Positions 21,701 through 49,400 of a stretch of DNA of 64,000 nucleotides are shown piece by piece; position 1 is the first letter of the stretch, and each line of letters starts with the position of its first letter. The notes below the pieces were generated by a model. That model saw only the letters and a program-made list of their open reading frames with translations. It was not told the origin of the DNA and did not search any database. Source of the DNA: a virus (lineage: Duplodnaviria > Caudoviricetes); IMG/VR virus record IMGVR_UViG_2568526014_000001, positions 5,958 to 69,957 of that record; one strand, 5' to 3'. The position numbers and the translations under genes were made by a program.

Positions 21701-21911
21701 GCGCTCGCTCGGCAGTTGCTCCTATGGGCGGCTCCGGATGGGTGGGGCTTCAGCATCACGAGACTACGTCCTGTCGTGCTTTGGTCCACCGGTTTCCTTT
21801 TGGCCGGCACGCCAACTCCTGTTCGGTAGCCGCCCACCCCCGATTGGCGTCGCGGGGGCGGTCTGAATCCTCGTGGTCAACCGTCGTATTAATGAGTCGA
21901 AGTATGCTGGG

Positions 21912-22817: not shown

Positions 22818-22940
22818 GGTGTGCGGGGTTGATGAGGGGCGGTTGATAACTATTATGTTCAGGACGAGTTTCGATTCACTCAATACTACCGGATGGTGGC
22901 GGCAAACGAGCATAAGTTTTAGTCTAGCCTAGACTACTTA

Positions 22941-32111: not shown

Positions 32112-32114
32112 CCG

Positions 32115-32618: not shown

Positions 32619-32626
32619 CGAAAGAC

Positions 32627-32667
32627 GGAAAAACGCCCTCGGGACGCTGTCGTGCCCCTTCGAGAAT
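32627..32667 (+). promoter_or_regulatory. late promoter GGAAAA-N29-GAGAAT
   Basis: Upstream of major capsid gene. Confidence 0.65.
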
Positions 32668-32726
32668 ACCTGTGAGTCGGCTGTTGCCGGCGCCCAGTGT
32701 TTGAACAGCCGAAAGGACACGAAACC

Positions 32727-34403: not shown

Positions 34404-34430
34404 TCCCAAGCCAGGAAAGGAGCCTTCATC

Positions 34431-34865
34431 ATGACGCGCAGTATCGAAATCGGCGCTCCGTCCCTGACCGGGAAGGACGCCAACGACGCGGTGACCGAAG
34501 TGTTCGGTGATGCCGCATTTCCACTGAAAGTGCTCGCGCAGAATCTCATGCCGCGCGACGTCGTGTTTCCCGAGGTGCCGGGTCTATTCCTGAAGCACGT
34601 GGCGAACACGGCGGAGAGCCGGGCCGTGGTGGAGGTCGTCAACCTCGATCTGTTCCACCGTGTCACTTCGAGCATCGAGCAAATCGCCGAGCTCAACGGT
34701 TACCCGCATGCGCTGACCTTCACGGAGGTCGAAGGCGCAGCCTCGACTGATGCGAATACCGCGGCCAAGGGCAAGAAGGGCAAGGCGCCGACGGCGGATG
34801 CCGGCACGGACGACGCGCGGCCGGCGGCCGGTGAGAGCAAGTCCGGCGCCACTGCCAAGGAGTGA
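34431..34865 (+). CDS. hypothetical virion protein
   Basis: RBS AAGGAG, between capsid and sheath. Confidence 0.7.
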   Translation: MTRSIEIGAPSLTGKDANDAVTEVFGDAAFPLKVLAQNLMPRDVVFPEVPGLFLKHVANTAESRAVVEVVNLDLFHRVTSSIEQIAELNGYPHALTFTEVEGAASTDANTAAKGKKGKAPTADAGTDDARPAAGESKSGATAKE

Positions 34866-34869
34866 CGAC

Positions 34870-36537
34870 ATGACCACCGCTTTCACGCGACAGCTCGGTG
34901 CGGAGTCTGGCGTGCAGCTCAACCCGCTGCGCGACGACTCCGAGATCCCGAGCACGGACAACTCGGACCAGATCTTCGGCATCGTGATGCGCGCCACGCG
35001 CGGGCGCATCGACAAGCCGTTCGTCGTGGACAAGGGCAACGTCTTCAAGCGACTGGGCAGCGGGGAGCAGGTGCGGCTGAACGCGCTGAACGAGGCCTGG
35101 GTGTGTGTCGTGGAGGCCCTGAACAAGGGCGCCTATCAGGCCGTCGTGCAACGCCTGGTGCCATCCACGGCGCGCATCAGCTACGCGATCGTGACGGTCG
35201 AGCGCACACCTGACGCCAAGTCGATGCCCACGGGAAAGTTCACCTACTCGGTCGACGAGGTCCTGCCGTCCGCGCGGTTCCTGTTCGCCGTCCGGCATCT
35301 CGAATGCTTCAACGACGGCATCGTGCTCGAGTTCCATGCCGAGGAGAAAACGATCGGCAGCAGTTTCCAGGCACCCAACGATCGCATCACGCTTCGTCTG
35401 CGCGATACGGCAGGCGGCCTACTGTACGAGTTCTCGGGATCGTTGGATCAGGATGCCAAGGACGACTATGGCAATTCTGCATATTTGCGGGACGTCGTGG
35501 CGTCGCAAACTGATGCCGTGGAGGTGGCAGTCGGTGCTCAAGGTATCGATGCCCGGATCGCCGTGGATTCCGAGGCCTACGGCTACGGCCCGACCGGACA
35601 GCAGCAATGGGCCAGATCGGGCGTGCTGCGGTGCTTCAACGAAGGCGGCACGTCGTACACCACGCAGGATTACATGGCGGCGCGCGAGAAGCTGCAGTAC
35701 ACGCAGTTCGACTACGCCTATCTGTCGTCTGGCGCAACTGAAGCCCCGGCGCTGCTCGCGCAGCTGGCGCAGTTGTCGTTCGATACGAACCGGCAACTGA
35801 AATTCGACGTGCCCGGCGATCTGTCGGTGGATGCCGCCCGGGCATTCGTTGATCAACTGAACATGGGCGCAAGCGAAACCGCGCACTTGCTGCACGCATT
35901 CTGGACGCCGCTGAAATCGGACGATCCGACGGGCGTGAACCCGAAAGGCTTTTTCGGCACCGCCACGCTGAATATCGCCTACGCCTGTCTGCGCAACGCC
36001 GCAAAGAACGCCAAGGGATTCGCGCGCAAGAACTACCCGATTGCCGGCCGGGAGTGGCCGATCCAGCGCACGGGCGTGGCGCAGATGGTGAAGCTGCGCG
36101 ACCAGGACAAGAACGCGCTCGCGCGGGCGAAGATCAACCCGGTCGTGTACGAAACCTACACCGGCGGCGGCCGTTACGTATTCCTCGACTCGCTGACCTG
36201 TGCCCAGGTCGACTCGAGCCTGAAGAAGCTGATTTCGGTGGCCGACATGTCGACCAGCATCGACGACGCGGTGACGCGCACCGCGAAGGACTACCTGCAG
36301 CTGCCGATCGCCGTCTCGGTGAAGAAGACGCAGGACTTTCTCACCACGCTGTTCGAGGCGGCCGACGCATCGAAGTGGTTGGTGCCGTCGAGCGAGCCAT
36401 CGATGAACGGCCGGTCCTGGGTCTTCGATGTTCGTCCGAACGCGCAACGTCCCTATGACGCGATGGACGTGTCGTACTGGCTCCGCTACGACGGGACGAA
36501 CCGCGCCACGTTCGTGACCCAGACGCTGACGCGCTAA
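34870..36537 (+). CDS. contractile tail sheath (P1 gp22-like)
   Basis: About 555 aa; RGRIDKPFVV; C-terminal LARAKINPV...FLDSLT sheath-like pattern. Confidence 0.75.
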   Translation: MTTAFTRQLGAESGVQLNPLRDDSEIPSTDNSDQIFGIVMRATRGRIDKPFVVDKGNVFKRLGSGEQVRLNALNEAWVCVVEALNKGAYQAVVQRLVPSTARISYAIVTVERTPDAKSMPTGKFTYSVDEVLPSARFLFAVRHLECFNDGIVLEFHAEEKTIGSSFQAPNDRITLRLRDTAGGLLYEFSGSLDQDAKDDYGNSAYLRDVVASQTDAVEVAVGAQGIDARIAVDSEAYGYGPTGQQQWARSGVLRCFNEGGTSYTTQDYMAAREKLQYTQFDYAYLSSGATEAPALLAQLAQLSFDTNRQLKFDVPGDLSVDAARAFVDQLNMGASETAHLLHAFWTPLKSDDPTGVNPKGFFGTATLNIAYACLRNAAKNAKGFARKNYPIAGREWPIQRTGVAQMVKLRDQDKNALARAKINPVVYETYTGGGRYVFLDSLTCAQVDSSLKKLISVADMSTSIDDAVTRTAKDYLQLPIAVSVKKTQDFLTTLFEAADASKWLVPSSEPSMNGRSWVFDVRPNAQRPYDAMDVSYWLRYDGTNRATFVTQTLTR

Positions 36538-36565
36538 CCGCTACTCTTCAGACAAGGAATTCAAG

Positions 36566-37252
36566 ATGAGCATGACCGAACTGTTGCGCAGCGCGATGGC
36601 GCGCCGCGCGTCTGCGCCCAAGCCGGTGCTGGATAGCACTACCGATGCCGACGATTCTCCGCCGGCTGGTGCGGGCGACTATACCGTGGCCGATATCAGC
36701 ATGTCGGCGGTGGCGGTGGTCCAGCAATGGGCTGAAACCGAGGACCTCGGCGACGGCGAGACCAACGCGGACCGCCTGATGGCACTGTTCATCGGGATCG
36801 CCGACGCGAACAAGGACGGCGAGATCACCGACGACGAGCAGGGCGTGCTGGAGGTCGCGCTCAACGCCGCGTGGGACTATCTCGTTGGGCTCGGCGTGAC
36901 GGAGGCGGATGCCGGCGCGCTCCTGAACGACTGGGACAGCGATACGGCCGATCGCGTCCGTGATCTGGTGGCGTCCGCGCTGCCGGAAGGCGACGACGCG
37001 GCGAGCGCCGGCATCGACGATTTCGTGTTCGCGGATGACGATCAGGCGCCGGCTCTGGATGCCGTGTATCGCAAGACGCTGGTGGTGCGCGGTGGCAAGA
37101 AAACGCGCATCAACAAGCGGATCTCCGGCAAGGTGCGTTTGTCCGCGGCCCAGAAGGTGGCGATTCGCAAGGCGCGGATGAAGAGCCATTCGGCGTCGGC
37201 GATGATGCGCCGCATGAAGTCGATGCGCTTGCGCCGCAAGTCGGGCCTGTGA
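36566..37252 (+). CDS. prohead core-like protein (acidic body, very basic tail)
   Basis: Tail RLSAAQKVAIRKARMKSH...RLRRKSGL recalls T4 gp68-type core proteins. Confidence 0.55.
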   Translation: MSMTELLRSAMARRASAPKPVLDSTTDADDSPPAGAGDYTVADISMSAVAVVQQWAETEDLGDGETNADRLMALFIGIADANKDGEITDDEQGVLEVALNAAWDYLVGLGVTEADAGALLNDWDSDTADRVRDLVASALPEGDDAASAGIDDFVFADDDQAPALDAVYRKTLVVRGGKKTRINKRISGKVRLSAAQKVAIRKARMKSHSASAMMRRMKSMRLRRKSGL

Positions 37253-37285
37253 CAATTCGCTGTCGTTGCGGCTCATCTCTCGACC

Positions 37286-38107
37286 ATGCCAACCATTCCC
37301 GCCATTGGCGTCTCGCCCAGTCTGGACGGTAGCGCGCTCACCTCGATCTGGGACGGCCTCTCGCCGCACCTGATCGCGAGCTTCTACGAGGTGGCGAAGA
37401 CGGGGGAGGACAGTTGGGGCCGCATTCCCGAGAAGACCGACCCGGTGACGGTGCTGGCCCCGCTCGGCGACGCGAGCCTCGAGATGGTGTTGAATTGGCA
37501 AAGTCCGTTCGAGCAGGCTGGCCCGGAATCCCGGGCGCCGACACTGATGGCGATGCTGCAATCCGGCGCACTGCAACCGATCATCGAGGCGGTGATCGGG
37601 AAGAAGCACGATGCGTCCAACTCAGGCGCGCAGCAGCAGTCCAGCGATTTCCTTCGGCAGTTCGAAGGGCGCACCGGCATCACGAAGTTGAACTCCACGC
37701 AGGTATTCAACGGCATGCCGCCGGTCAAGATCACGGTGACGGCGCTTTTCCGCGCGTGGCGGGACGCGGCCAGCGAGGTAGAGGCGCCGTTCAACAAGCT
37801 GATGGAATGGGCGCTCCCCATCGAGCTATCGAAGGACGGATCGGTGCTGGCGCGTGCAGCTGAAACGCTCAAGGGAGGAATGGGCGCCGTCGAGGCGCTG
37901 ATGCCGTCGAGGTCGCCGACGCGCATCGCCATGCGCTACAAGGGGCGCACGTTCTCCCCGCTGGTGATCGAGTCCATCGGCATGCCGCTGAATTCCCCGG
38001 TGGACGTCAATGGCCGGTACGTCGAACTGGCCGTCCCGCTGACCCTCTGCACGCTGACCGCGATAGACCGCAAGGATTGGAGCAACGCGTCCGTGACGTC
38101 TCTCTAG
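37286..38107 (+). CDS. tail/baseplate structural protein
   Basis: Tube-initiator-like beta pattern; late operon. Confidence 0.55.
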   Translation: MPTIPAIGVSPSLDGSALTSIWDGLSPHLIASFYEVAKTGEDSWGRIPEKTDPVTVLAPLGDASLEMVLNWQSPFEQAGPESRAPTLMAMLQSGALQPIIEAVIGKKHDASNSGAQQQSSDFLRQFEGRTGITKLNSTQVFNGMPPVKITVTALFRAWRDAASEVEAPFNKLMEWALPIELSKDGSVLARAAETLKGGMGAVEALMPSRSPTRIAMRYKGRTFSPLVIESIGMPLNSPVDVNGRYVELAVPLTLCTLTAIDRKDWSNASVTSL

Positions 38108-38117
38108 AAGGAACAAC

Positions 38118-38867
38118 GTGATCCATTTTCCGCCGCTGCGCACGCGGCGCCTGACGCTGCAGCTGCGCGAACTGTCGTTCAGTGACTCGATCGCCGTGGC
38201 GTCGATGCCGCCGCATCTGGCGGAGGCGGAATGCACGGCGTTCCTGCGCGCCGCTGTCCAGTCGGCCAAGGGCCTCGACGATCCGGCCCGGTGGACGGTC
38301 CAGGAGCGCATGCTGGTGGTGTGCCATTACCTTGCCGCGACGGCGGAAGATGGTCCGGATTTCGCCGTCGGCGAGGGGCATTACTCGGACTACCTGGACG
38401 GCGGCACGGATATTCAGACGGCGGCGCCGATGCTCGAACTGGGCGAAGTTGGCGGCGATGTCTGGCACATCCGCCACCTGACTGGGGCGATGGCCGAGTC
38501 CATCGAGCGCATGGTCGGCGAGGTCGCAGGCATTGGCGCGCGACTTCACTGGCTGCTCGGCGCGATGGCCGCGCAGATGGTCCGTGCCGGCGAGAGCGTG
38601 CCCGACGCCTCGGACGGGGAAGGCGCGTTCGACGAGTTTCTGGTCGGGCGGATGCGGATCCTGAGCGGCTTTCCCGAGACGGATTTCGCGGCGCTCATGG
38701 GCCTGTTCTTCGAGGGGCGCGAGAAGCTGCACCACCTATTCAGGATCGAGTTGACGGGCGACGGCATCGTAGCGATGCCGAAAGGAGGGGCGGCAGCCGA
38801 TCTGCCGCCCGCCCGATTTCCGGCACGTACCTGTCTCTCCGGAATCGCGCGCGAACTGGTCGGATAA
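38118..38867 (+). CDS. hypothetical tail assembly protein
   Basis: RBS AAGGA, GTG start. Confidence 0.6.
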   Translation: MIHFPPLRTRRLTLQLRELSFSDSIAVASMPPHLAEAECTAFLRAAVQSAKGLDDPARWTVQERMLVVCHYLAATAEDGPDFAVGEGHYSDYLDGGTDIQTAAPMLELGEVGGDVWHIRHLTGAMAESIERMVGEVAGIGARLHWLLGAMAAQMVRAGESVPDASDGEGAFDEFLVGRMRILSGFPETDFAALMGLFFEGREKLHHLFRIELTGDGIVAMPKGGAAADLPPARFPARTCLSGIARELVG

Positions 38868-38871
38868 TCTG

Positions 38872-39096
38872 ATGGCGTTGGCGTCCAGCCTCACGCTGTA
38901 TTCCGCCACGTCCTTGAACGATGCGATGGCCATGCCACCGAGCGTCGTGCGAGCGTTCTTCGGTGGAAAGCCGTTCGAGGCGTGGAAGCAGACGAGGGAA
39001 ACCGAGCAAAAGACGCAGGCGGCGATCGTGAGCCGGCTCAACGATGTGATACGCGGTACCGGGGTAGTGGCGAAGCTTGTCGCCAAGGCGCGATAG
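38872..39096 (+). CDS. small tail-assembly chaperone-like protein
   Basis: Follows previous ORF; AMAMPPSVVRAFF. Confidence 0.5.
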   Translation: MALASSLTLYSATSLNDAMAMPPSVVRAFFGGKPFEAWKQTRETEQKTQAAIVSRLNDVIRGTGVVAKLVAKAR

Positions 39097-39517
39097 AAAT
39101 GAGGACCACAATTTCCGTGGTCGATGCTATCTGAGACGCGAGGTAGCTCAAGTGTATTGCGCGCGGCGATCTTTTACGTGGTAAGCGGCTTGAATGACAC
39201 CGACGGGCCGTAGAGCCCTAAAGCGCTAGTATGCCGAGCTCGTATGGCTAGGTAGGCTTCGTATTGCCTCATGTGTACTTGATATTCATGCTGCTGTGCT
39301 TCTTCTAACCGCTGTCATTAGCTGCACATGGTTCGTCGATAGCTTGTGTCGTTGCCTTTTGAACGCTAACGAAAAATTAGTTTGACTGTGTGGTAATTTA
39401 ATTTAATATATTTCAAGAAATTTTATCCGCCCATGTGTGAGTTCATCAGACAAAAGCAACAAAATGTGAGCTTGCGCAAAAATGGTGCTGATTTCACATC
39501 AATGATGCGGGGGAAAT

Positions 39518-39898
39518 ATGTCTGGAAGTGGCGGCGGTGGTGGCGGAGATTGGCGGCCGGAACCCAAAGCACCTGTGCCGGTGCCGAATGCGGGTGGAAA
39601 CGGAGGCGGTGGTGTCGGCGGAAGTGACCCGTGTGTGATCGACGAAGTGACCTCCCTTAATTCTGTTTCGCCAGCTGCACTACGTAATGTGGGAGCGGGT
39701 ACTCTACTCAATGTGGTGTTCGTGGCTGGACCACCGCAACGACTCGTCGCTCAGGACGCTTCTGGGCAGATTGTGGGGTCTATTACGTCGCGCTCAATGC
39801 TTCAGATTATCGAATGTATCCAGAACGGCCGTAGGTACGTCGTGGAGGTACTGGGAATCCAAGGGGGCTCTTGCCAAGTCCGGGTGCGACTGGCATGA
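39518..39898 (+). CDS. Gly-rich N-terminus, HIRAN-like small protein (island gene 1)
   Basis: MSGSGGGGGG...GGNGGGGVGG, then GTLLNV...SGQIVGSI...IQNGRRYVVEV; ATGA overlap with next gene. Confidence 0.7.
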   Translation: MSGSGGGGGGDWRPEPKAPVPVPNAGGNGGGGVGGSDPCVIDEVTSLNSVSPAALRNVGAGTLLNVVFVAGPPQRLVAQDASGQIVGSITSRSMLQIIECIQNGRRYVVEVLGIQGGSCQVRVRLA

Positions 39899-41094
39899 CG
39901 CAAAGCAAAATTGATGTCGTCGGTGGCGTCTACCACGAGCAGTGTATTTGGCCTGCGTGGGACCAAATCTTTGGTTCTGGTGGGCGAGCTGCAACTGCGC
40001 TTGTTAGTCACGTCGACAAAGTGTTGCTACACACCTATGCGCACCCTGACGTCGAAAATGAATTCAAAAAAGCTGCAACGGTGTATAAATTCGACTTGGC
40101 CACAACTGCTGCTCGGGCCGGGATCTCGTTTGAATACGTGCATTGCATGTCGACACCTGTAATTCGTCCAGCCATAGCACGCATTCATAGGTACGAGCCC
40201 ATTGAAGTAAGCGCCAATGCAGTGCTGCGCTTCGGGATGCTGGAGGGGGCAGGAAAGGTGAACGCGAAATGGTGCGTTTACGACCCACAATCAGCGTTCC
40301 ATCCGGAGTCGTTCTGGGCTAACGGTAGCCAGGCCGAGCACCTTGCGATTGTCGCCAATCGAAGCGAAATTACTGCAATGGCCGGGGATTCAAACCCGAA
40401 GACGGCTGCAGAGACGTTGTTGCAGCGCGGTGCTGAAGTTGTTGTGGTCAAGTCGGGGCCAACTGGCGCGTACGTGTACAGCGCCAGCGGCACCGAGATA
40501 CATATCCCCGCCTACCGCAGCGACATGGTATGGACCATTGGCTCGGGGGACGTATTTGCCGCTATCTTCGCAGCTCAATGGGCGGTGCATGGCGCTAGCC
40601 CTGCTGCCGCAGCAGAGCTGGCTTCCCGTGCGGTCTCGCAATACGCAGAAACGATGGGGCTGCCTGCAGCCCCAGTTCAAGAATTATCGGCGACTCAGCG
40701 TACGCCCGCGTCTACGGTTGCTGGGAAGGTCTATTTGGCCAGCCCTTTCTTCAATCTTGGGCAAAGGTGGCTCGTGGACGAGGCGCGACGTTGCCTAGTT
40801 GAGCTCGGCCTCGATGTGTTTTCTCCTGTTCATGACGTCGGCCGCGGTCCTGCCCACGATGTAGCACCGAAAGACATCGAAGCCTTAAACTCCTGTGACC
40901 GAGTCTTTGCGATTCTCGATGGCCTTGACGCCGGCACCATCTTTGAGGTCGGCTACGCGCGTTCAAAGAAAATCCCCGTATATGCGCTCGCGCAAGCGGT
41001 CAACGAAGAGGACCTGAAAATGGTTGTTGGAACGGACTGCCGGTTGTTCTTCGACTTGGTAACGGCGCTCCATCACACGGCATGGAAAGCATGA
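39895..41094 (+). CDS. PfkB-family kinase fused to nucleoside 2-deoxyribosyltransferase domain
   Basis: VVVKSGPTGA and TIGSGDVF (PfkB); VYLASPFF...DIEAL..CD...DAGTIFEVGYA (NDT/Rcl). Confidence 0.85.
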   Translation: MTQSKIDVVGGVYHEQCIWPAWDQIFGSGGRAATALVSHVDKVLLHTYAHPDVENEFKKAATVYKFDLATTAARAGISFEYVHCMSTPVIRPAIARIHRYEPIEVSANAVLRFGMLEGAGKVNAKWCVYDPQSAFHPESFWANGSQAEHLAIVANRSEITAMAGDSNPKTAAETLLQRGAEVVVVKSGPTGAYVYSASGTEIHIPAYRSDMVWTIGSGDVFAAIFAAQWAVHGASPAAAAELASRAVSQYAETMGLPAAPVQELSATQRTPASTVAGKVYLASPFFNLGQRWLVDEARRCLVELGLDVFSPVHDVGRGPAHDVAPKDIEALNSCDRVFAILDGLDAGTIFEVGYARSKKIPVYALAQAVNEEDLKMVVGTDCRLFFDLVTALHHTAWKA

Positions 41095-41687
41095 GGACAG
41101 CACTTCTTCTATCCGGGGGTATGGACTCGGTTGCCATCGCCTACTGGGTACGCCCAGAAGTCGGTATCACGGTCGCGTATGGGCAGCGCGCAGCCCAGGC
41201 AGAGGCGCGTGCAGCGGCAGCAGTCTGTGATGCGCTCAATATCGAGCATCATTTGATCCAGGCCGACTTAAGCGCGTTAGGTAGTGGCGATATGGCCGGT
41301 CTGTCGCCCGCGACTCTCGCTCCTGTATCGGAGTGGTGGCCATTTCGCAACCAGATGCTGGTCACTCTGGCGGCAATGAAGGCCGTCACGCTCAATGTAA
41401 ACAGGCTCATGATAGGTTCGCTGCGTACCGATGATATCCATGCCGATGGCAAACCTGAGTTCATCACGGCCATGAGTGCAGTGTTGCAATGCCAGGAAGG
41501 CGGGATAACGCTCGATGCTCCCGCTATCCAGTTGAGTGGAGCGGAGCTCATCAAGACGTCCGGCGTTCCCACTGACTTACTCGCATGGGCCCACTCTTGT
41601 CACGTAGCAAATGAAGCTTGCGGGATGTGCCGCGGCTGCCGAAAGCACTACGAGACGCTCGAGGAGCTTGGGCTTGATCCTTACTGA
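41091..41687 (+). CDS. QueC-family (7-cyano-7-deazaguanine synthase-like) PP-loop protein
   Basis: LLSGGMDS, YGQR, PFRNQML, SC...CGMCRGC Zn site. Confidence 0.88.
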   Translation: MRTALLLSGGMDSVAIAYWVRPEVGITVAYGQRAAQAEARAAAAVCDALNIEHHLIQADLSALGSGDMAGLSPATLAPVSEWWPFRNQMLVTLAAMKAVTLNVNRLMIGSLRTDDIHADGKPEFITAMSAVLQCQEGGITLDAPAIQLSGAELIKTSGVPTDLLAWAHSCHVANEACGMCRGCRKHYETLEELGLDPY

Positions 41688-42336
41688 AGATCCACGACCG
41701 CTAGGCGATGGTCCGTACTCGGACTACGCGTGGCCGGTCGAATCGAGTACTCCGTTCGAGCCATTCAGAGCTCCTGAAGAACTAGCGTTCGTGGATGTGT
41801 TCGAACAACGCCGCTCTACCCGAACGCTGTTGCCAGTCCCGCTAGACTTGACGGTTGGAGCGATGCTTTTTGGGCTAATGCCTCGGTTCTGGAAAGAGGG
41901 GGACGCGCTGAGGCGAAGTCGCCGCCCAACACTGTCGGCTGGCGCCCTTCATCCAATCTCGGTTTTGATATTCGACAACTCGGCTGTTTTTCGCATCAAC
42001 GCCGATTCATGCATGCTTGAGAAGCTCACATTTGCGCCCGAGGCAAGGGACGCATGGATCGATAAATGCCAACGGGTACTCCCTGGCTCGAACGGAGCAC
42101 TCCTAACGTTTGTCGCCGACATGGCTCGCCCAGCGAGCGCTTATGCGCATTGCGAGACGCTTGTTTGGCGAGACGCAGGCGCTATGCTTCAAACGCTTGC
42201 GCTCGTCGCGACATTGTTTGGACTCAGTTTCTGCCCGTTAGGTCTACTCGGCAGCGAGGTCGTTTCGGCCCTTCCATTGAGCGAACAGCTTCTTGCTGTC
42301 GGTGCGGCGGCAATCGGATTGCCAGTAGAAAACTGA
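41674..42336 (+). CDS. SagB-like nitroreductase/dehydrogenase
   Basis: RRSTR, RPTLSAGALHP, RDAGAMLQTL...GLSFCPLG; TTG start behind GAGGAG. Confidence 0.8.
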   Translation: MILTEDPRPLGDGPYSDYAWPVESSTPFEPFRAPEELAFVDVFEQRRSTRTLLPVPLDLTVGAMLFGLMPRFWKEGDALRRSRRPTLSAGALHPISVLIFDNSAVFRINADSCMLEKLTFAPEARDAWIDKCQRVLPGSNGALLTFVADMARPASAYAHCETLVWRDAGAMLQTLALVATLFGLSFCPLGLLGSEVVSALPLSEQLLAVGAAAIGLPVEN

Positions 42337-42351
42337 TCGGCGCCGGTTCGA

Positions 42352-43143
42352 TTAGTGAACACCGACGCTGTTGTCAACGAAGAGATCGAGCTGCTCGGAC
42401 TGCGTGTGCATCTTCCTCATGATGGCGGACAAACGGCGCATGTGATCCCACATAAGACCGTCGAGCGTGGCTGCCGAGGCGTCGATAGCACGCGCAAACG
42501 CGATGAAACGAGCCTCCAGTTGTCGATAGTGTGTCTCTGGCTGCCAATCCACCGGGAACAGGCCAAGGTGTTGGCCCACTCGAAGAATGTGAATGTCCAG
42601 AATCGCTACTTCGCTCTGCGGGCGCAGGTTGCGAACAATCCACGAAGCCGTCTTGAGACCGATCCCCGGCAACTCGTTTAGCTTGTCCCGAAAAGCAATG
42701 TCATTTTCGGGAGGAGTAAAGCCGGCCAGACGTTCAAGGCAACCGCTTAGATATCGTGCCTTCTGTCGGATAAATCGATATTTGCGTTCGCGACCTTGAA
42801 AGATGAACGGCTCACTCAACGCATTTTCGAGATCTTGCGCAGTGATACCAGCGTGTAGGAGGTTGCGCTCTCGAACGCGCGAATAAGCAGCCAACGCTAA
42901 CTCTGCTGGCATCCCCCAGCCCCCTAGCAGACACGCAGCCACTTCCTCCTCTAGCGAGCGACCGAGACGAAAATCGCAGAATGTGCCGGACTCAGTGTGT
43001 TGCCAAGCTTGCCCACACCAATATGCCGGAGTCATCAGCTCATCGAATGCTCCCCAGCAGATGCCAGGAAGTACTTCTTCATGCACTGCTGGTAGGGTCA
43101 ATTCGCGGACTTCGCCCGCGATGTGTGCGTACATGGTTTGCAT
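42352..43143 (-). CDS. 8-oxoguanine DNA glycosylase-like HhH protein
   Basis: LPGIGLKTASWIVRN...VAILDIHILR; YRF..QKA. Confidence 0.85.
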   Translation of the reverse strand: MQTMYAHIAGEVRELTLPAVHEEVLPGICWGAFDELMTPAYWCGQAWQHTESGTFCDFRLGRSLEEEVAACLLGGWGMPAELALAAYSRVRERNLLHAGITAQDLENALSEPFIFQGRERKYRFIRQKARYLSGCLERLAGFTPPENDIAFRDKLNELPGIGLKTASWIVRNLRPQSEVAILDIHILRVGQHLGLFPVDWQPETHYRQLEARFIAFARAIDASAATLDGLMWDHMRRLSAIMRKMHTQSEQLDLFVDNSVGVH

Positions 43144-43276
43144 CTGGACTGGTGCTTGTCTGATGATTTTTTAATGCGCAGCTACGTTCGCAGCTGCGAG
43201 GCGTCGCATCATACAGCAGTCCCGTCAACGATAGACGAATCCTCGCCTACCGGCAATGACTACGGGTGATCCAGAT

Positions 43277-43317
43277 GGAAAACCACGCCTGGATCCGAAC
43301 GTGCGCAGTTCTATCCT
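43277..43317 (+). promoter_or_regulatory. late promoter GGAAAA-N29-TATCCT
   Basis: Upstream of tail tube gene. Confidence 0.75.
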
Positions 43318-43352
43318 AGACGCCGATTAATTGCACATCGACAGGACACGCC

Positions 43353-43853
43353 ATGACCGTCTCGACCGCCTCCCTCCTGAAGGGGCACTACGACACGACC
43401 CGCGCGCTCGGCGCGAAGGTCATATCTTCCGACTTCGCCTTCGAGATCGAGGGCTTCGAGGCCAACTGGCTGCTGGCGAAGCAATGCCCGTGGCCCGAGA
43501 TCTCGCCGACCGGGGAAGTCGAAGTGCCCATGCCGCTCGGCGCCAACATGTGGCAGCCCCAGCAGATCAAGATCGCCCAGCAAGGTCAGATTTCCATGCA
43601 GGAGACGGTGGCCGGGAGCGTCGACAACATGCTCATCGACATCATCGCCCGCGGTGGCCTCTTCAACGCCAAGGTGTACGAGGGCACGCCGCAGAAGTAC
43701 CTGCGCGCCAAGCGGATCGTCGACTGCTTCATGCAGATGGACAACCCGGATCGTGACTGGGAGAACCGCTCGCAGGTGCTGGTGTTCTCCGGCACGCTGT
43801 TTTTCCACTATTTCGGCGAAACGCTGCCGGGGAACTCGGGCGATTACCGCTGA
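43353..43853 (+). CDS. tail tube protein (P1 BplB-like)
   Basis: LKGHY...GAKVISSDF...QISMQETVAG resembles BplB as I recall it. Confidence 0.7.
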   Translation: MTVSTASLLKGHYDTTRALGAKVISSDFAFEIEGFEANWLLAKQCPWPEISPTGEVEVPMPLGANMWQPQQIKIAQQGQISMQETVAGSVDNMLIDIIARGGLFNAKVYEGTPQKYLRAKRIVDCFMQMDNPDRDWENRSQVLVFSGTLFFHYFGETLPGNSGDYR

Positions 43854-44236
43854 TGGCGACGCTGGTCGAACTGGCGGAGCGCTTCGCGTCGCAGGAGCGG
43901 CCGGCCGGTAACCTGCTGGACGAGGGCACCTTGCTGGCGCAGTTGCTGGCCGCGACCCGGTTCTATGCCGGATTCGCGGCGATCCGCTCATTCGAGACCG
44001 CAACGCCGCCACGCGAGGTCGGCAAGGACACCGAGATCAACGATTCCGAATGGGCGCTGATCCGTCCATTGTTCATGCTCTACGTCGAGCGCGAGACGGC
44101 GCTCCAGCTGGAGGCCTCCAGAGGCTTGGGCATCGATCCGTTTGGCCGCTCGGCCAGCGAGGTCGCCGCGGAAATCGCGCAGATCGAGGCGGACATGCCG
44201 CGCAAGGCATTTTGCCAGCCGATCGTAACCGTCTAG
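43853..44236 (+). CDS. hypothetical virion protein
   Basis: Coupled ORF. Confidence 0.65.
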   Translation: MATLVELAERFASQERPAGNLLDEGTLLAQLLAATRFYAGFAAIRSFETATPPREVGKDTEINDSEWALIRPLFMLYVERETALQLEASRGLGIDPFGRSASEVAAEIAQIEADMPRKAFCQPIVTV

Positions 44237-44243
44237 ACGCGCC

Positions 44244-45143
44244 ATGATCCTGCTTCTGTCCGACGGCAACCAGATTCGTGGCGACTTGATCAAGTCCGCG
44301 ACACTGCGCTCAGATCTCGCCCCCATTCCGGTCACGCTGGAGGCGGAGATCCGGGCCGGCGACGACAGCCTGGAGAAACTGCTGAAGGAAGGGCAGACGC
44401 TCTCGACGGGCGGCGGTGACGTGCTGCGCATCGTCAAGTCGGTGCGTGTGGGCAGCCGGGTTGCTCAGGGCATACGCGAGATGGCGGCGTTCCGAGTTAT
44501 CGCGCTGCTCGATGCGTGCCAGGGTGCCGCGTACGTGCGCAGCCGCGCCATTCTCAAGGAGAGCGCAGCGCTATCGGCGATCTACCGAGCCGCCGGGGCG
44601 ACGATCAAAGCCGTCGATGCGGATTTCCCAGTGCCGCGGTTCTACTGCCCAGTGGGAGAGACGCCGACGTTTCAGATCGCGCGAGTCCTGCAGGAAGAGG
44701 GCGGCGTGGTTCGGTGGCGCAGGGGCAGGCTTCAGTTCGTCCGCTTGCCGGATTTGCTGAAGCAGACGCCCGTGATGACGTTGCCTGACGTGGCGGCGGA
44801 TGACATCGACAGCGGTTTCATGGAGCGGCATGAGGTGCCCTGGTTCTTCTCGCTGGACGCCGCCGGCGCGGCCATCTTCGGCAACCGCAGCAAGCCCCGC
44901 GTCGTGCGCTTCTCACCATTCAAGGATGTCCAGCGCCTGCGCAACATGACGCGCTGTCTCGTGCATCGCAAGACGCCGCGGATGGCCTACAACGGCAGCA
45001 TCGGTGCCGGTGATCTCGTCGCCCTTGCCAGCGGTGCCAAGCTGGTCGTCATCACGGCGGCGCATGCCTTCGTCTCGGGCACCGATGACGGCGGCGCGAG
45101 CGACACCTACAGCCGGTTGTGGCTGGGCAGCGTGGAGGAATGA
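44244..45143 (+). CDS. baseplate hub-like protein
   Basis: Precedes spike gene; LRSDLAPIPVTLE. Confidence 0.6.
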   Translation: MILLLSDGNQIRGDLIKSATLRSDLAPIPVTLEAEIRAGDDSLEKLLKEGQTLSTGGGDVLRIVKSVRVGSRVAQGIREMAAFRVIALLDACQGAAYVRSRAILKESAALSAIYRAAGATIKAVDADFPVPRFYCPVGETPTFQIARVLQEEGGVVRWRRGRLQFVRLPDLLKQTPVMTLPDVAADDIDSGFMERHEVPWFFSLDAAGAAIFGNRSKPRVVRFSPFKDVQRLRNMTRCLVHRKTPRMAYNGSIGAGDLVALASGAKLVVITAAHAFVSGTDDGGASDTYSRLWLGSVEE

Positions 45144-45760
45144 TGGAGTATGGCCTGATGCCTGGCCGCTATCCGGCCATCGTGCGCGGCTATCACGCAG
45201 GCCGCAGGACGTGCCGCGTCGAAATCCCCGGGCTGACCGATGGCGGTGACGTACTGCCCGAGGCGGAAATCGAATACCCCATCGGAGATAAATCCCGCGA
45301 CGGCGCGCATTCAACCGAGCTCGAGATCACGCTGGGCGATGCAGTGTGGATCGCGTTCATTGGAGGTGATCCGCGGTATCCGATTATCACCGGATACCGC
45401 AACCCGCAGGCCGGCAATGCGGTGGACTGGCGCCGCTGGCATCACGCGAACCTGGAGTTGCTGGCCGACACGCTGATGAACCTGATTGCAGGCGGCGACG
45501 TGCTGGTCAAATCGGGCTCGCACGTGACCGTGAAGGCGCCCAGTGTGACCGTCGATGCGGCCGAGACGACCTGCACGGGCAACCTGACAGTGGATGGCGG
45601 TCTGAACGTCAAGGGCGGTGGTAGCGGCGGCACGTCGAGGATTCACGGCAACTTCCAGATCACCGGGGGCGAACTGACGCACAACGGCAAGAACGTCGGC
45701 AGCGAGCACAAGCATCCTGGCGTGAAGCGTGGTGGCGGCACGACCGATGGCCCAACGTAA
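45143..45760 (+). CDS. baseplate spike (gpV/gp5-like)
   Basis: GDAVWIAFIGGDPRYPII OB fold; beta-helix; C-terminal HKHPGV metal-binding apex. Confidence 0.85.
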   Translation: MEYGLMPGRYPAIVRGYHAGRRTCRVEIPGLTDGGDVLPEAEIEYPIGDKSRDGAHSTELEITLGDAVWIAFIGGDPRYPIITGYRNPQAGNAVDWRRWHHANLELLADTLMNLIAGGDVLVKSGSHVTVKAPSVTVDAAETTCTGNLTVDGGLNVKGGGSGGTSRIHGNFQITGGELTHNGKNVGSEHKHPGVKRGGGTTDGPT

Positions 45761-45770
45761 AGGATCAACC

Positions 45771-46247
45771 ATGAAGAATCTGCTATTCAGTTTTCGCGAT
45801 CTCTCGGCAAAGTCGACCGCGGCGAAACAGGTCGTACGCTACTTCACGCGAGCGGGCGCCACCGTCGTTCAGCAGGACATCGTGTCCGGCCTGAAGCGCA
45901 CCTCGGGCGTGACCTACCGTGAGATGGATCTGACGTTCGCCGACTCGCAGCGCGTGACGTTTCGCATCAAGCAGACGGGCGACATCTTCCAGGTGCTGCT
46001 CAACGGCAGAGTCCTGCCGATCAAGAACCAGGACGATCACGTCCGGGCGATCGCGGAGATCGCACAGATGATGGATGCGGGACGCTCACGCTTCCAGAAA
46101 CTGTTGGCCGCGGCGAAGGTGCGGCCGCCGGTCGGCATTCGTACGGCGGTGCCGAAGATGGAGCAGGTCCTGGTCGAGAAGCGCGACGCGCTGAAAGCGG
46201 CCATCGCTGAGGTGCGCATGCAGATTGCCGCGCTGGATCTGACGTAG
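45771..46247 (+). CDS. Hdf/DarA_N-like protein
   Basis: KRTSGVTYREMDLTFADSQRVTFRIKQTGDIFQVLLNGRVLPIKN; adjacent to darA-like gene as in P1. Confidence 0.7.
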   Translation: MKNLLFSFRDLSAKSTAAKQVVRYFTRAGATVVQQDIVSGLKRTSGVTYREMDLTFADSQRVTFRIKQTGDIFQVLLNGRVLPIKNQDDHVRAIAEIAQMMDAGRSRFQKLLAAAKVRPPVGIRTAVPKMEQVLVEKRDALKAAIAEVRMQIAALDLT

Positions 46248-46281
46248 CAGGGTGGGCCCACGCTGCGTGAAGTCGTAGGGC

Positions 46282-46322
46282 GGAAAACACCGCACATTCC
46301 TCGTACCTCCGAGCCATACCAT
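46282..46322 (+). promoter_or_regulatory. late promoter GGAAAA-N29-TACCAT
   Basis: Upstream of darA-like gene. Confidence 0.75.
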
Positions 46323-46450
46323 TTCCTTGGCAGGCCGCATCAGCAGTGAGCGCGGCCGGAAAGGCTCGATCGCATGGTTTTCGCTTCGTTGCAGCAGATA
46401 GGCAAGTGCCACGCGTTCAGCCGATACCCTACCCAGGAAGGACTGAATTC

Positions 46451-49400
46451 GTGAGCCAGAAAGTGCAGTGGGGCAGCGACGCGCTGCCCGTCGACAGAAC
46501 CCTTGATCGAGTGCTTTACGAGATCCGATGCTCGGACGCGCTTGACGGCTTGCTGTTGGACTCGGTGAGCGAGCAGGAAGTCATCGAGGATGCAGAGGGG
46601 CTGCTGACGCTCGATGCGCTCGTGTCGCCCTATGCACGCTTGCCGCGCAAGATGGAGCTATTGCGCGTCGTCATGGAGCGGACCGGCCATGACGTCAAGC
46701 CGCTCGCGGTACAGATCACGCAGCCATTCAAGCAGCGCGGGGTTGCCAATGTCGCGGCGATCTTCGAGTTGTCCGACGGCCAGACCGTGAGCATCTACTT
46801 CCACAATCCGGACGTGACGCCGAACAAGATGGCGCCCGCCGACGAGGTGATCTCGTGGAAGTGGTTGCTGAACAAGCGCGACATCACGATCGTCGTCGCA
46901 CCCGAGCGCGGTATCGACCTGAACCTGCGCGATGTGGCGCGCCGGGTCATGCGGCTGGCCGAGAGGAATAGTGCGGCGTTCCAACGCGTCAACGCCAAGC
47001 GCGCCGAGCGCATGGAGAGCATCCGGTCGCTGAAAGGCGAAATCGCCGAGCTTGAGAACGAGCTGGACACGGCGCAGCACGATCTTGAGGTGGCGCATGT
47101 GGCGGCCGAGGACGCGGCGCGTGCGCGGGCACTCGCAGCAGCCCAGGCAGAACGCGATGAGCAGGAAGTGCGGCACGCGCCCGCTACGGACATCGAGGCG
47201 TCGCCCGGAGAGAGTGGGATCGACACTGACGAGCCCCATGAGCCCGAACAGCCCGAGCTCGATGTGCCAAACCAGCCGCACGAGCCGGGTGGTGATGGAG
47301 ATGCGGCGGCCGACGTCTCACATCCGAACACAGTGCTCACTGCTTCTGCTGAGCCGATCACCTTGCGGGGCAATGAACTCGGCGATTTTCCCGACACGGA
47401 CGAGGGGCGAACGGCTTTGCGAGCTGCAGCGAAGGACTTCTTGATGGCGATGCGCGGCGAGTGGATCGAATGCGCTGTCCTGAAGCAGTCGGTCGAAATT
47501 CGCAAGCGCGGCATCAATGAGACGATCCACTTCAGCGCCAGTCCGAAAAAGCTGAAGCTGATCCCGGCGATCAGGAGGTTGATCGAGACGGCGCAGGAGA
47601 GTGTCGAAGAGCCCAATCACAAAAGGGGCAGCAAGCCGGACGTGCGCCGGTACTTCCTCCTGAAAAATACGGTAGCGCTCGACGGAGAGATCGTGCGGGT
47701 CGCTGTGCTGATCGAAGAAGACAGTAACGGGCTCCTTCACTACGACCTGCTTGTGGATCGTTCAGAAACAAAAACGACGCTCGATTCCTCAAGCGCCGTC
47801 CTTGTGCCCGAACGTTCCCAAGACAACGATTCTTGGCATCCGGACGCTTCCAATATAGATAGCCAAGGTATCGATGTCAACGAGGCGGCTCTGGATTCCG
47901 TCGTCGAGGGTGCGCTGGTTCTCAACCTGTTCATCGATGGGGAAGAGAATGCGATTGCAAGCCGCGACGAAGCGTCAGCCGTCTCGGCAAAATCCCAAGT
48001 CGTTCAAGCGGACACCGAGGACGCAAGCTCGGTCGACGCGAAGATTCCGTTCCACAAGATGACGCCCGACCAGCAGCGCGCCGCGATGGCCGCCGAGAAG
48101 TCGGTGGTGTCGGACGAGCAGGTAGACCAGTTCCTGGCGGCCTGGGGTGGCCTCACGACGGACTACATGACGGCCGGCTATCGCGTGGCGGGCCGCATCG
48201 TGGCCGGGGCGCCCGATGCGTTCCGCGTCGAGGCTGGCAAGGTGGAAGCGGTTTCGCCCGATGGCATGACCACCACCGAGGCCACGGCCGACCAAGTGGA
48301 CGAGCTGCGCGACGCGATGCGGGGCGGCCAGGTGCAGGTGGAGCTGTATCGCCGCTGGGGCGGCAGCGTCGATGCCGCGAAGCCGATCAAGGTGCTGCAC
48401 CAGGCCACGGGCAAGTTCAAGCCGTTCGAGGGCAAGTTCGAGCTGCCGAGCGCGCCAGCCGCCTCCGACGACTTTGACCCGACGACGCCCGAGCAGCACG
48501 CGGGCGAGGTGGACGGAGAGGCAATGGCCGAGGCCGCACGCCGCGCGCGGGCGCCTGACGTGAATCCCGAGGCGGACGTGCCTGTCGTGGTCGCCGGCAA
48601 TGAGCTGGGAGATTTCCCCGATACCGAGGAAGGCAAGGTTGAGTTGCGCGCCGCTGCGCGTGAATATCTCCGCTCCTTGCGTGGCAAGCTCGTTTCTTGC
48701 CCGGCGCTGGGCAAGCCGGTGGAGATTCGCCAGCGTGGCATCAAGGAAACGTTGGCCTTCAGTGCCGATCCGCGTAAATTGAAGCTGATCGCGGCGATCG
48801 AGAAGATCATTGGTGCGGGCAAGAACCCGGTGCGCGAGGTAAACCACAAGCTCAGCGCAAAGCCCACCGTGGATGCGTACTACCACCTCGAATCGGCGGC
48901 TGTCCTGAATGGAAATCCGCTGGCGCTGCAACTGGTCATCGAGGAAGACAAGAGCGGGACGCTGTACTACGACTTTCTGATTGACCGGCGCGAGGCCAAA
49001 ACAAAAACGGCACTGGATAGCTCCAGCGCCGCTTCTGTGCCGCAATCGATCCCCGATCACAATTCGGGGGATGGCGACGAAAATACGTTAGCCGATGTTG
49101 ATAGCAGCGTCAAGACTCTGGATTCCGCCGACGATGAGGGTGGGGACATGGTGCTCAACCTGTTCATCGTCGGCGATGAGGCTGTCGATGTCCTCCCTGC
49201 TTCTGCCGCCGCGCAGGCCGACGCGGAGAATGCGCTGGGGGCGTCGGATGATGCTGCGAACGACGATGACGGCCTGTCCGACGACCCAAACAGCTCGAAC
49301 TACCGTTACCGCGACACCGGCTACATCGCCGACAGCCGCAAGGAGAAGGCGGCCAACCTGATCTCCAGCGCACGCAAGACTGGCCAGCGGCTGCGTGCGA

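Follow-up and report, generated by a model that had tools for sequence, protein, structure and literature searches.

In type IV cyclic oligonucleotide-based anti-phage signalling systems (CBASS), the QueC-like protein Cap9, the Cap10 protein, which resembles tRNA-guanine transglycosylases (TGT), and the Ogg-like protein Cap11 modify the N-terminus of the CD-NTase, as can be taken from the available text of Wassarman et al. (10.1101/2025.04.06.647259). In Cap9 the conjugated base, a deazaguanine, is bound by Asp117 and stacks on Tyr115 and Arg86, and QatC, the QueC-family protein of the QatABCD system, possesses threonine at the positions of Asp117 and Tyr115 (10.1101/2025.04.06.647259, PMC13639016). 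The substrate in QatABCD is QatB (PMC13279940, PMC13639016, PMC13376578). Both CdnD, which starts with MGGS and receives its adduct on Gly2, and QatB, which starts with MGTS and needs its Gly2, have disordered tails, according to the accessible parts of PMC13279940. Here we describe a cassette of five intact open reading frames (ORFs) at positions 39518-43143 of a stretch of 64,000 nucleotides, referred to as the window, which was taken from a provirus record of 69,957 nucleotides (Caudoviricetes; IMG/VR record IMGVR_UViG_2568526014_000001). We call its genes g1 to g5:

39518..39898, + strand: g1, protein of 126 amino acids with an MSGSGG... tail and a HIRAN-like beta domain, always the first gene of the operon
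39895..41094, + strand: g2, fusion of a PfkB kinase and a nucleoside 2-deoxyribosyltransferase (NDT), 399 amino acids from the ATG (the longest ORF starts with TTG at 39871)
41082 or 41091..41687, + strand: g3, QueC-family PP-loop ATPase of 'Cluster 4' of PF06508, 201 or 198 amino acids
41674..42336, + strand: g4, flavin mononucleotide (FMN) oxidase of the ThcOx/SagB (azoline oxidase) kind, 220 amino acids from the likelier TTG start at 41674 (the longest ORF, from 41611, has 241)
42352..43143, - strand: g5, archaeal-type Ogg-like helix-hairpin-helix (HhH) DNA glycosylase/lyase, 263 amino acids, convergent with g4

We regard a defence function of this cassette as probable. Whether it represents a hitherto unnamed defence system of the QueC family, in which a nucleobase becomes conjugated to the N-terminus of a protein, with the later steps left loose, is in our view evenly balanced. 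Modification of g1 by g3 is somewhat favoured, and 7-deazaguanine as the conjugated base is a tentative and rather doubtful choice. We infer both the chemistry and the effector of the cassette.

The most informative protein in this regard is g3. It matches PF06508 (E-value 2.2e-24) and the PADLOC model for QueC (7.4e-18), whereas its score with the canonical QueC equivalog TIGR00364 (69.6 bits) lies under the cut-off of 150.3 bits. Its best PDB matches by phmmer are Cap9 (9nto_B, 2.4e-6) and QueC from B. subtilis (3bl5, 4.3e-6). In the phmmer alignment, Asp117 of Cap9 corresponds to D122 of g3, which is invariant in 30 homologues, and Tyr115 corresponds to H120, which is near-invariant in them. 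The RN motif (R89, N90) is also invariant in 30 homologues; R89 can be equated with Arg86 of Cap9 by motif, using the B. subtilis QueC alignment rather than a pairwise one. A GSG[DE] loop is common to g3 and Cap9 and is missing in the two canonical QueC structures, and the canonical YPDC substrate motif reads H-A-D-G in g3. Judged by these residues, g3 thus looks more Cap9-like than QatC does.

The Cluster 4 signature (SGGMDS, YGQ and CH-x5-C-x2-C-x-G-C-x-K) is present in g3 and kept in 30 homologues, and the PF00294-PF05014 fusion gene g2 lies directly upstream, as in the definition of that cluster. According to the main text of Libby, de Crecy-Lagard, Hutinet et al. 2026 (PMC13329287), QueC Cluster 4 is paired with a PfkB-NDT protein, and purine salvage was proposed for the pair. 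The short length of g3, its SGGxDS, YGQ and CH(x)5CxxCxGCxK motifs and the adjoining PF00294-PF05014 fusion all agree with the cluster as described there. The words nitroreductase, OGG, SagB and glycosylase do not occur in that main text, nor is a small protein with an N-terminal tail mentioned; the supplementary neighbourhood table was outside the scope of this comparison and may list g1, g4 or g5. If this proposal is followed, or the oxidative-damage repair put forward in the available text of a preprint on S. maltophilia (10.1101/2021.08.12.455975), the cassette would serve ordinary purine or nucleoside salvage or the repair of oxidative damage on mobile DNA, and its enzymes do have housekeeping relatives. 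However, neither g1 nor the ThcOx-like oxidase has a place in such a pathway. Moreover, a separate canonical QueC (approximately 230 bits) is already present in four of the five host genomes tested, and QueD in all five, while the cassette copy stays below the equivalog cut-off. Since the hosts hold canonical QueC and QueD, the cassette QueC can be regarded as an extra paralogue in cells that are able to make the carboxy-deazaguanine precursor. Together with the patchy mobile distribution inside defence islands and the dGTPase or Mrr nucleases swapped into some copies (see below), this makes salvage or repair highly improbable.

The presumed partner of g3 is g1, which belongs to no sequence family, as neither Pfam nor PADLOC nor NCBIfam contains a match. 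In its AlphaFold2 (AF2) model, with a mean predicted local distance difference test score (pLDDT) of 85.5 and values above 90 in the domain, a disordered Gly-rich tail (residues 1-38) is followed by a compact beta domain (residues 40-126). The flexible MSGSGGGGGG N-terminus, which a preliminary description of this DNA made from the sequence alone had pointed out, is therefore also found in the model. Foldseek searches with the domain against the PDB gave no match at an E-value of 1e-3 or better; the best one was 3k2y (3.3e-3, TMt 0.71), and five HIRAN entries of HLTF were found at 0.03-0.08. Named HIRAN proteins take ranks 3, 7 and 49 in BFVD, a library of viral models, and the ESM Atlas contains a HIRAN cluster at 0.85, which serves as a lead only. 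The HIRAN-like domain of the preliminary description consequently has some support by predicted fold, at weak E-values, and none by sequence profile.

A search of 1.84 billion entries resulted in 514 representatives related to g1 at E-values of 1e-3 or below, 81 of them at 1e-10 or below. Among the best 150 relatives, 98 begin with Met-Ser-Gly and have more Gly or Ser within a few residues (a number that includes starts recovered inside over-long start calls), and 8 further ones begin with Met-Ser, which gives a total of 106/150 with Ser2. Another 18 of these 150 begin with Met-Gly-Gly and hence have Gly2, and the remainder are mostly fragments or have doubtful starts. Met1 is invariant in an alignment of 86 rows and Gly3 is conserved to at least 90%, with a variable tail behind them. 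The extreme N-terminus is the best-conserved feature of the g1 family, and such an N-terminus on a disordered tail fits a substrate of QueC-family conjugation, the role that the preliminary description had proposed for g1. Within the domain, Cys39 and Cys100 are invariant in the 86 relatives, and the majority consensus has a third cysteine near the C-terminus; Cys39, Cys100 and Cys118 are encoded at 39632-39634, 39815-39817 and 39869-39871 of the window. These residues may constitute a site for metal binding or redox chemistry in the HIRAN-like domain.

Both parts of g2 are well supported by Pfam. The PfkB part (approximately residues 1-265) matches PF00294 with an E-value of 8.8e-15 (55.2 bits, cut-off 25.8), and the NDT part (approximately residues 277-399) matches PF05014 with 1.1e-15 (58.2 bits, cut-off 28.8). 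Invariant in 11 homologues are GG (G10-G11), N155-x-x-E158, G216-S-G-D219 and E351. We take GG, NxxE and GxGD to be the motifs of PfkB kinases, and GSGD of g2 aligns with GAGD of the solved PfkB kinases 3pl2, 4du5 and 2qcv. In the second part, YLASPFFN and D.GT..E.G align with solved NDTs, and E351 aligns with the glutamate of the (F/W/V)-E-L-G stretch in 6evs, 7o62 and 8rh3, which presumably is the NDT nucleophile.

The homologues of g4 have approximately 220 amino acids and are named nitroreductase or SagB/ThcOx. A SagB-like protein had been expected at this position, and the fold agrees with this expectation but the family profiles do not. TIGR03605 (4.8e-6, 26.2 bits, cut-off 78.4) and the Pfam Nitroreductase profile (17.5 bits, cut-off 23.5) remain below their cut-offs, and a sequence search against the PDB reached only an E-value of 0.22; in contrast, Foldseek searches with the AF2 model (pLDDT 94.4) found ThcOx (4.2e-11, TMq 0.81), BmdC (1.5e-8) and McbC (3e-6). 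The FMN-type RRSxR motif of these azoline oxidases is kept, with R46, R47, S48 and R50 invariant or nearly so. Unlike them, g4 is a single domain of 220 amino acids with a TIGR03605 score under the cut-off and has no YcaO or other cyclodehydratase as a partner, neither in the cassette nor in the annotated homologous loci. If an azoline forms at all, its formation would, speculatively, fall to g3. The nearest folds of g4 belong to azoline oxidases of the cyanobactin, bacillamide and microcin B17 pathways, and the tail of g1 shares its richness in Gly and Ser with microcin B17. One could therefore read g1 as the precursor of a ribosomally synthesised and post-translationally modified peptide, whose N-terminus g3 and g4 would convert into an azole peptide that is then set free as a bacteriocin. 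However, a conserved extreme N-terminus in front of a folded C-terminal domain is the reverse of a leader-core layout, the cassette and the loci examined contain no cyclodehydratase, protease or exporter, and NDT, PfkB and Ogg would be without a role. We hold a bacteriocin pathway to be hardly credible.

The fifth protein, g5, matches PF22175 with an E-value of 1.8e-11 (44.4 bits, cut-off 27), and its PDB matches are the archaeal-type Ogg structures 3fhg, 9o00 and 3n0u. Its GIGLK...ILD stretch aligns with the HhH Lys/Asp stretch of 3fhg and 9o00 (GIG/GLG-M-(Q/K)-E-A-S...I-I-D), in which the lysine and the aspartate presumably are the catalytic residues of Ogg. The PfkB, NDT, QueC and Ogg-HhH domains named at the outset for these genes are accordingly all confirmed by Pfam. 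In NCBIfam, none of the five proteins reached the cut-off of an equivalog.

There are clear parallels between this cassette and type IV CBASS. The nearest solved relative of g3 is Cap9, with the base-binding aspartate, RN, the GSG[DE] loop and the zinc cysteines kept, both gene sets contain an Ogg-like gene, and in both the partner protein has a conserved N-terminus, rich in Gly/Ser, on a tail that is disordered. In contrast to type IV CBASS, the cassette has no CD-NTase (Pfam, PADLOC), no TGT and no recognised effector. Its partner is HIRAN-like with serine after Met1, Tyr115 of Cap9 is replaced by histidine, and the PfkB-NDT fusion and the ThcOx-like oxidase are additional. The likeness of g1 to the CBASS substrate is therefore functional and does not imply membership. 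A similar picture emerges for QatABCD, which combines a QueC-family enzyme with a small partner outside any family that carries an essential or conserved N-terminal motif on a long disordered tail. Here the differences are that g3, with 201 amino acids, lacks the extensions of QatC (approximately 400 amino acids) and keeps the aspartate that is threonine in QatC, that the QatA ATPase and the TatD nuclease QatD are missing, and that g1 has a beta domain whereas QatB is helical. The absence of CD-NTase and QatA from the cassette, noted before any search, is confirmed by Pfam and for CD-NTase also by PADLOC.

The second publication to show the operon is the S. maltophilia preprint mentioned above, the available text of which lists four of the cassette genes as an operon and guesses at oxidative-damage repair or an insertion of deazaguanine into DNA (10.1101/2021.08.12.455975). 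Full-text literature searches, with supplementary tables outside their scope, gave these two mentions of the operon and neither a name, nor an analysis of g1, nor an experiment. The operon is thus in print twice, yet as a system it is neither named, nor analysed, nor tested. The preliminary description had called it undescribed, which is incorrect for the operon itself (PMC13329287, 10.1101/2021.08.12.455975) and correct, as far as the available texts of these two sources go, for the system. Its defence role, conjugation and modified-purine signal are still hypotheses. The comparison with named systems that it suggested gave no named set in PADLOC, where models exist only for the QueC component.

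Our scan by tblastn and hidden Markov models (HMMs) resulted in 53 loci with a relative of g2, designated by L and a number, namely 12 from reference genomes, 1 further provirus, 23 metagenome contigs and 17 of 37 matching plasmid records; there are a few near-duplicates among them (L004/L005, L007/L019 and L026/L027). Three loci (L043, L047 and L048) contain TIR-type operons and were set apart, which leaves 50 HIRAN-type loci. In these, g1 is present in all 45 loci with upstream sequence, g3 in 48 of 49 (it is missing in L020), g4 in 35 of 43 and g5 in 34 of 40, and approximately 30 of the 50 possess all five genes. The co-occurrence of the cassette genes is far beyond chance, in agreement with the five-gene synteny that had been recommended as a check. 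Gene order and orientation are held down to approximately 37-45% identity of g2; g5 is located upstream on the same strand in L033, L036, L050, L052 and L053. The phage genes of the window adjoin none of the related loci. Because the genes recur together and the phage flanks never do, we consider the cassette a mobile unit with the core g1-g2-g3.

The hosts of this unit comprise Burkholderiales, Alpha- and Gammaproteobacteria, a cyanobacterium, a metagenome-assembled genome of Armatimonadota and three haloarchaeal plasmids, and its carriers are chromosomal defence islands, 37 plasmids (19 of them typed as conjugative) and another provirus (L014). A comparison of g2 with 50,697 GenBank phage records gave no match, and a scan of viral contigs revealed one further provirus only. 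The haloarchaeal loci (L040:4919-6007, L045:4387-5022 and L046:4339-4998) contain g1-g2-g3 only. Their g1 homologues consist of two tandem HIRAN-like copies and start with MGG or MCG, and the one from Halorubrum has an additional acidic linker of approximately 190 residues. A protein with an Nmad3 domain adjoins L046. In a Roseivivax plasmid, g4 is immediately followed by a VUT-family (Vut_1) transporter gene (L050:7001-7540), for which the record gives queuosine salvage as annotation; it is a single case tying the cassette to the uptake of deazaguanine precursors.

Around the core there is considerable variation. A D12-class adenine methylase gene is translationally coupled to g5 in L038:9243-9920, L039:9282-9950, L042:9224-9973 and L049:7734-8411. 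These are gammaproteobacterial and cyanobacterial plasmid copies, and the window has no such methylase. A Mrr-type (Mrr_cat) nuclease is encoded between g4 and g5 in L021:2626-3834 and L044:8496-9578, the two proteins being 33% identical to each other, and a Mrr_cat protein replaces g4 in L053:6284-7006; it is a candidate for a swappable effector.

The methylases and nucleases, the latter inside L021, L044 and L053, could also be understood in the manner of Dpd or restriction-modification systems, namely that the cassette produces a modified purine in, or places it into, the DNA of the element or the host for self-marking or anti-restriction, with g5 and the Dam-like methylase acting on DNA. 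Carriage by a prophage and by conjugative plasmids and a g1 fold known from the binding of DNA ends would agree with this, and the 2021 preprint (10.1101/2021.08.12.455975), in its available text, had guessed at the insertion of deazaguanine into DNA. However, the methylase is missing from the window and from most other copies, and the RNA data given below suggest expression of the cassette alongside low expression of the left-hand tail genes. DNA hypermodification pathways usually reside in phages, and the GenBank phage records mentioned above contained no match to g2. Moreover, the whole provirus record of 69,957 nucleotides lacks a TGT (PF01702), a control search having found PF01702 in 14/14 genomes, and it also lacks QueD. 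Dpd-type 7-deazaguanine DNA modification differs from the provirus in exactly these points, the transglycosylase (DpdA) being of the TGT family. The absence of queD and tgt had been remarked upon for the vicinity of the cassette and thus extends to the entire record. Overall, DNA marking seems distinctly unlikely to us.

Another recurrent neighbour is an anti-phage-type dGTPase (HD + HD_assoc), which directly adjoins the cassette in L003:5069-6427, L009:3862-5391 and L039:10376-11740. In Moraxella (L041:7795-9285) it takes the place of g4, its start overlapping the end of g3, in a locus without g4 and g5, and in Rhizobium (L052:1882-3249) it lies upstream on the same strand in a locus without g4. 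This may be a functional link, perhaps with deoxyguanosine as the NDT donor, or the dGTPase may be a mere island neighbour. A protein of L044 with an 'HD domain' was considered as a further dGTPase and rejected, as it is not homologous at 1e-5 to the four dGTPases compared.

The release of deoxyguanosine by a dGTPase beside or inside the operon (L003, L009, L039, L041 and L052) would also suit a free small molecule made without any conjugation. In that case g3, with g4, would remodel a deazapurine-type base, the NDT would add deoxyribose and PfkB would phosphorylate the product to an antiviral analogue or a signal, with g5 handling the analogue in DNA. Free bases or nucleosides can be substrates of all three kinds of enzyme, which here retain their catalytic motifs. 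The defence context would be the same, and enzymes homologous to QueC contribute to the pathways of deazapurine nucleoside antibiotics. However, g1 would be unexplained although it is present in 45/45 assessable loci, stands first in the operon and has its N-terminus best kept. Furthermore, ThcOx-type oxidases act on peptide- or carrier-bound azolines, and the PDB search puts g3 closer to Cap9 than to any biosynthetic QueC. A free molecule is for these reasons unlikely. Returning to conjugation to a protein, we propose that g4, g5, the Dam methylase, the Mrr-type nuclease and the dGTPase are exchangeable accessories or effectors around the core g1-g2-g3.

The defence function is suggested by the genomic surroundings. 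Among 102 flanking ORFs of 11 loci, PADLOC found dGTPase, LmuA/LmuB, BilA/C/D, HamA, ThsB, DrmD, Dsr2 and PD-T4-2_B, in addition to PDC-S14, PDC-S24 and a type II methylase; 20 larger neighbours were scanned singly, and the remaining entries of this tally are not assigned to individual loci. In 5 of the 11 loci strong matches lie directly beside the cassette, namely dGTPase in L003 and L009, PDC-S31 in L004, PDC-S24 with LmuA in L010 and BilD in L012. Pfam matches among the same 102 ORFs include integrases and Mrr nucleases and, in L014, a phage portal and terminase. The plasmid copies have TIR, DUF262, dGTPase, Mrr nuclease, multiubiquitin/ThiF/DUF6527 and toxin-antitoxin genes as neighbours. 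Such a mix is typical of defence gene sets, given here as a raw listing that has no background rate. Ubiquitin-like conjugation genes occur beside the cassette in three unrelated loci, as multiubiquitin/ThiF/DUF6527 in L042:2471-5279 and L052:7175-9472 and as BilD in L012:8946-10843; the flank tally also includes BilA and BilC matches.

A further tie to immunity is given by the TIR-type operons. Those on plasmids of Agrobacterium sp. MA01 (L047:4947-9358) and Neorhizobium petrolearium (L048:5004-9398) encode a g2-like protein, a TIR-TGT fusion, an Ogg-like 'DNA lyase', a QueC and a TIR protein of 155 amino acids that starts with MGGG; L043 was placed in this type by HMM. The g2-like protein is 38% identical to g2 (3e-62) and has degraded NDT motifs, the lyase is 26% identical to g5 (8e-12) and the QueC 31% to g3 (4e-14). 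In the g2 tree, the TIR-type proteins group with HIRAN-type loci that lack g4 (96% in the Shimodaira-Hasegawa-like approximate likelihood ratio test, SH-aLRT, from a quick search). Both loci match the 'Thoeris with Cap9, Cap10, Cap11' operons of a preprint (10.64898/2025.12.03.692087), the available text of which, with the supplementary tables outside the scope, does not mention the PfkB protein. These operons tie the PfkB-NDT protein to an accepted immune context. They resemble the cassette in combining, within one operon, a PfkB-NDT-like protein, an Ogg-like lyase and a QueC with a small protein, which here starts with MGGG, but differ from it in that the presumed substrate is TIR and not HIRAN-like, that a TIR-TGT fusion is present and that a ThcOx-like oxidase is missing.

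Within the provirus, the cassette lies in a block that stands out by its base composition and is preceded by a promoter-like site:

39100..43250, no strand assigned: inserted low-GC block (moron), delimited by guanine-cytosine (GC) content, by flanks typed with PHROGs and by comparison with provirus L014
39382..39409, + strand: promoter-like TTGACT-16-TAATAT, approximately 110 nucleotides 5' of g1, the sole sigma-70-like site in 38800-43500

The GC content is 0.48-0.59 over 39000-43250 and 0.64-0.67 in the flanks. PHROGs assigned a tail sheath gene (34750-36537) and genes of PmgG-like and PmgB-like proteins (37286-38867) to the left flank, and a tail-tube gene (43353-43853) followed by further tail proteins to the right flank. 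The block therefore interrupts a contractile-tail module between the sheath-side genes and the tail-tube gene. Provirus L014 shares the window sequence from approximately 39626 to 43190, that is the cassette, but not the flanks, and no direct or inverted repeats marking an insertion were found to flank the cassette. The ATG of g2 overlaps the stop of g1 as ATGA (39895-39898), the same overlap exists between g2 and g3 if g3 starts at 41091, the start of g4 overlaps the end of g3 by 14 or 77 nucleotides, and the stops of the convergent g4 and g5 are 15 nucleotides apart. The low-GC block in the tail operon, the serial overlaps and the convergent glycosylase at the end of the block, all noticed beforehand from the letters alone, are thereby confirmed. 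The promoter-like region fared less well, for the TTGACT site at 39382 does exist, but one site in 38800-43500 is not above the mean of 2.3 in shuffled sequences. Searches of 38700-43500 against Rfam at E-values up to 1 gave no match, neither a preQ1 nor any other riboswitch.

The same provirus contains a second low-GC island (GC content 0.48-0.59) at 15000-23500 of the window. It encodes a Fic/DOC protein (15260-16027) and a T5orf172/MUG113 protein (21912-22913) on the - strand, Hypoth_Ymh (17939-18748) and HEPN RiboL-PSP (19265-20101) proteins on the + strand and two IS4/5 transposase ORFs (20130-20966 on the + strand and 22947-23459 on the - strand), and may be other defence or toxin-antitoxin cargo.

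Eight RNA-seq runs from two studies contained 97-100% of the sampled words of the cassette. When four of them were placed on 32000-50000, the cassette was found in one contig with a mean depth of 160-336, compared to 4-25 for the contigs of the tail genes to the left, although such contigs of RNA libraries give neither strand nor local level and DNA carry-over is possible. The cassette contig begins at 39428, 39436 and 39451 in three of the four runs, just past the promoter-like site, which is a weak hint at a promoter. Taken as a whole, the RNA data, with a cassette contig roughly ten times deeper than the flanking tail genes, moderately suggest transcription of the moron at a time when the left-hand tail genes are almost silent. 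A separate rise in depth (40-50 compared to 7-25 around it) occurs in three of the four runs (X1, X2 and X5) over a lower-GC stretch at 46900-47850, which falls inside a tail ORF of 1693 amino acids (46346-51427).

If the cassette is indeed a conjugation system, it might be a mobile anti-phage moron that is expressed in the lysogen and could operate as follows. First, g1 would lose Met1, which exposes Ser2 on a disordered Gly-rich tail of approximately 38 residues. Then g3 would adenylate a carboxylated 7-deazaguanine-type base from the queuosine pathway of the host and couple it to the N-terminal amine of g1, a step suggested by the homology of g3 and the conservation of the g1 tail. More speculatively, g4 would act on the N-terminal adduct and possibly oxidise an oxazoline formed from Ser2. 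The base or the sugar would be handled by g2, whose NDT might bind or deoxyribosylate a purine-type base and whose PfkB part might phosphorylate a sugar hydroxyl; alternatively, g2 could be the effector and disturb deoxynucleoside pools. The HIRAN-like domain of g1 may, judging from its fold, bring the adduct to the 3' ends of invading phage DNA or sense these ends. Finally, g5 might reverse or restrain the reaction, as proposed for Cap11, or attack DNA.

Several observations weigh against this mechanism. The residue exposed in g1 is serine and not the glycine on which CdnD is modified and on which QatB depends. By alignment, Tyr115 of Cap9 is changed to histidine in g3 and the cysteine of YPDC to glycine, and because of these two changes the acyl substrate may not be carboxy-deazaguanine. 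For QatC, too, the reaction with carboxy-deazaguanine could not be shown, according to the accessible parts of PMC13639016. The term HIRAN-like is only a statement on the predicted fold of g1, at E-values from 1e-3 to 1e-1; the Pfam profile PF08797 (HIRAN) did not match g1 at E-values up to 0.1, and the A1 profile gave only chance matches among PDB sequences (E-value 2.2). PADLOC-DB 2.0 has no model that matches g1, g2, g4 or g5, and the five-gene form contains no classical effector such as a nuclease, a pore or an NADase. The idea that the NDT simply replaces Cap10 (TGT) had to be rejected, as both L047 and L048 encode a TGT fusion together with the g2-like protein; because of this co-existence g2 may instead act as an effector or at a later stage of processing. 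On the g2 tree, which leaves out 13 loci without a known N-terminus of g1 or an assessable g4, g4 is present in 30 of 34 rows with Ser2 and in 0 of 6 rows without serine, but this comprises only 2-3 independent contrasts (sign test, p = 1), has no power and is not evidence. That Ser2 and an azoline-type oxidase belong together via oxazoline-to-oxazole chemistry is thus an unproven idea. The deep RNA contig extends to 44.4-44.9 kb over the tail-tube gene in two of the four runs, and the limits of RNA-library contigs given above apply here as well. The published purine-salvage proposal for Cluster 4 also has to be counted on this side. The main argument on the other side is that salvage or repair, a bacteriocin, DNA marking and a free small molecule all lack a role for g1 and its conserved N-terminus, which N-terminal conjugation would provide.

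A more specific version of N-terminal conjugation would be that the cassette writes a nucleotide onto a protein. According to this idea, g3 would couple carboxy-7-deazaguanine to Ser2 of g1 and close an oxazoline, g4 would oxidise it to an oxazole, the NDT would deoxyribosylate N9 with dGTPase-derived deoxyguanosine as the donor and PfkB would phosphorylate the 5' position. The HIRAN-like domain would then set the tethered deoxynucleotide at the 3' end of phage DNA and block replication, and g5 would remove it. The closure of the oxazoline may reuse the second ATP-dependent step of QueC (activation of an amide oxygen), with the serine side chain. We consider this full sequence of steps very unlikely, and it predicts mass shifts of +176.03 Da (amide) and then +156.01 Da (oxazole) for des-Met g1.

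The conjugation of a nucleobase to a protein by a QueC-family enzyme was found only in 2025, in type IV CBASS, with Qat as the second case. With its three to five genes, the compact core of the cassette suits testing in laboratory strains. If our reading is true, it would correct the published purine-salvage guess for QueC Cluster 4 and add a third and widespread lineage (514 representative clusters of g1), which extends from Proteobacteria to haloarchaea and is found on plasmids as well as in prophages and defence islands. It would also bring in a different substrate, with the fold of a DNA-end binder, and a different set of enzymes consisting of a kinase-deoxyribosyltransferase, an azoline-type oxidase and a glycosylase, and this enzyme set bears on the fate of the conjugated base after its attachment.

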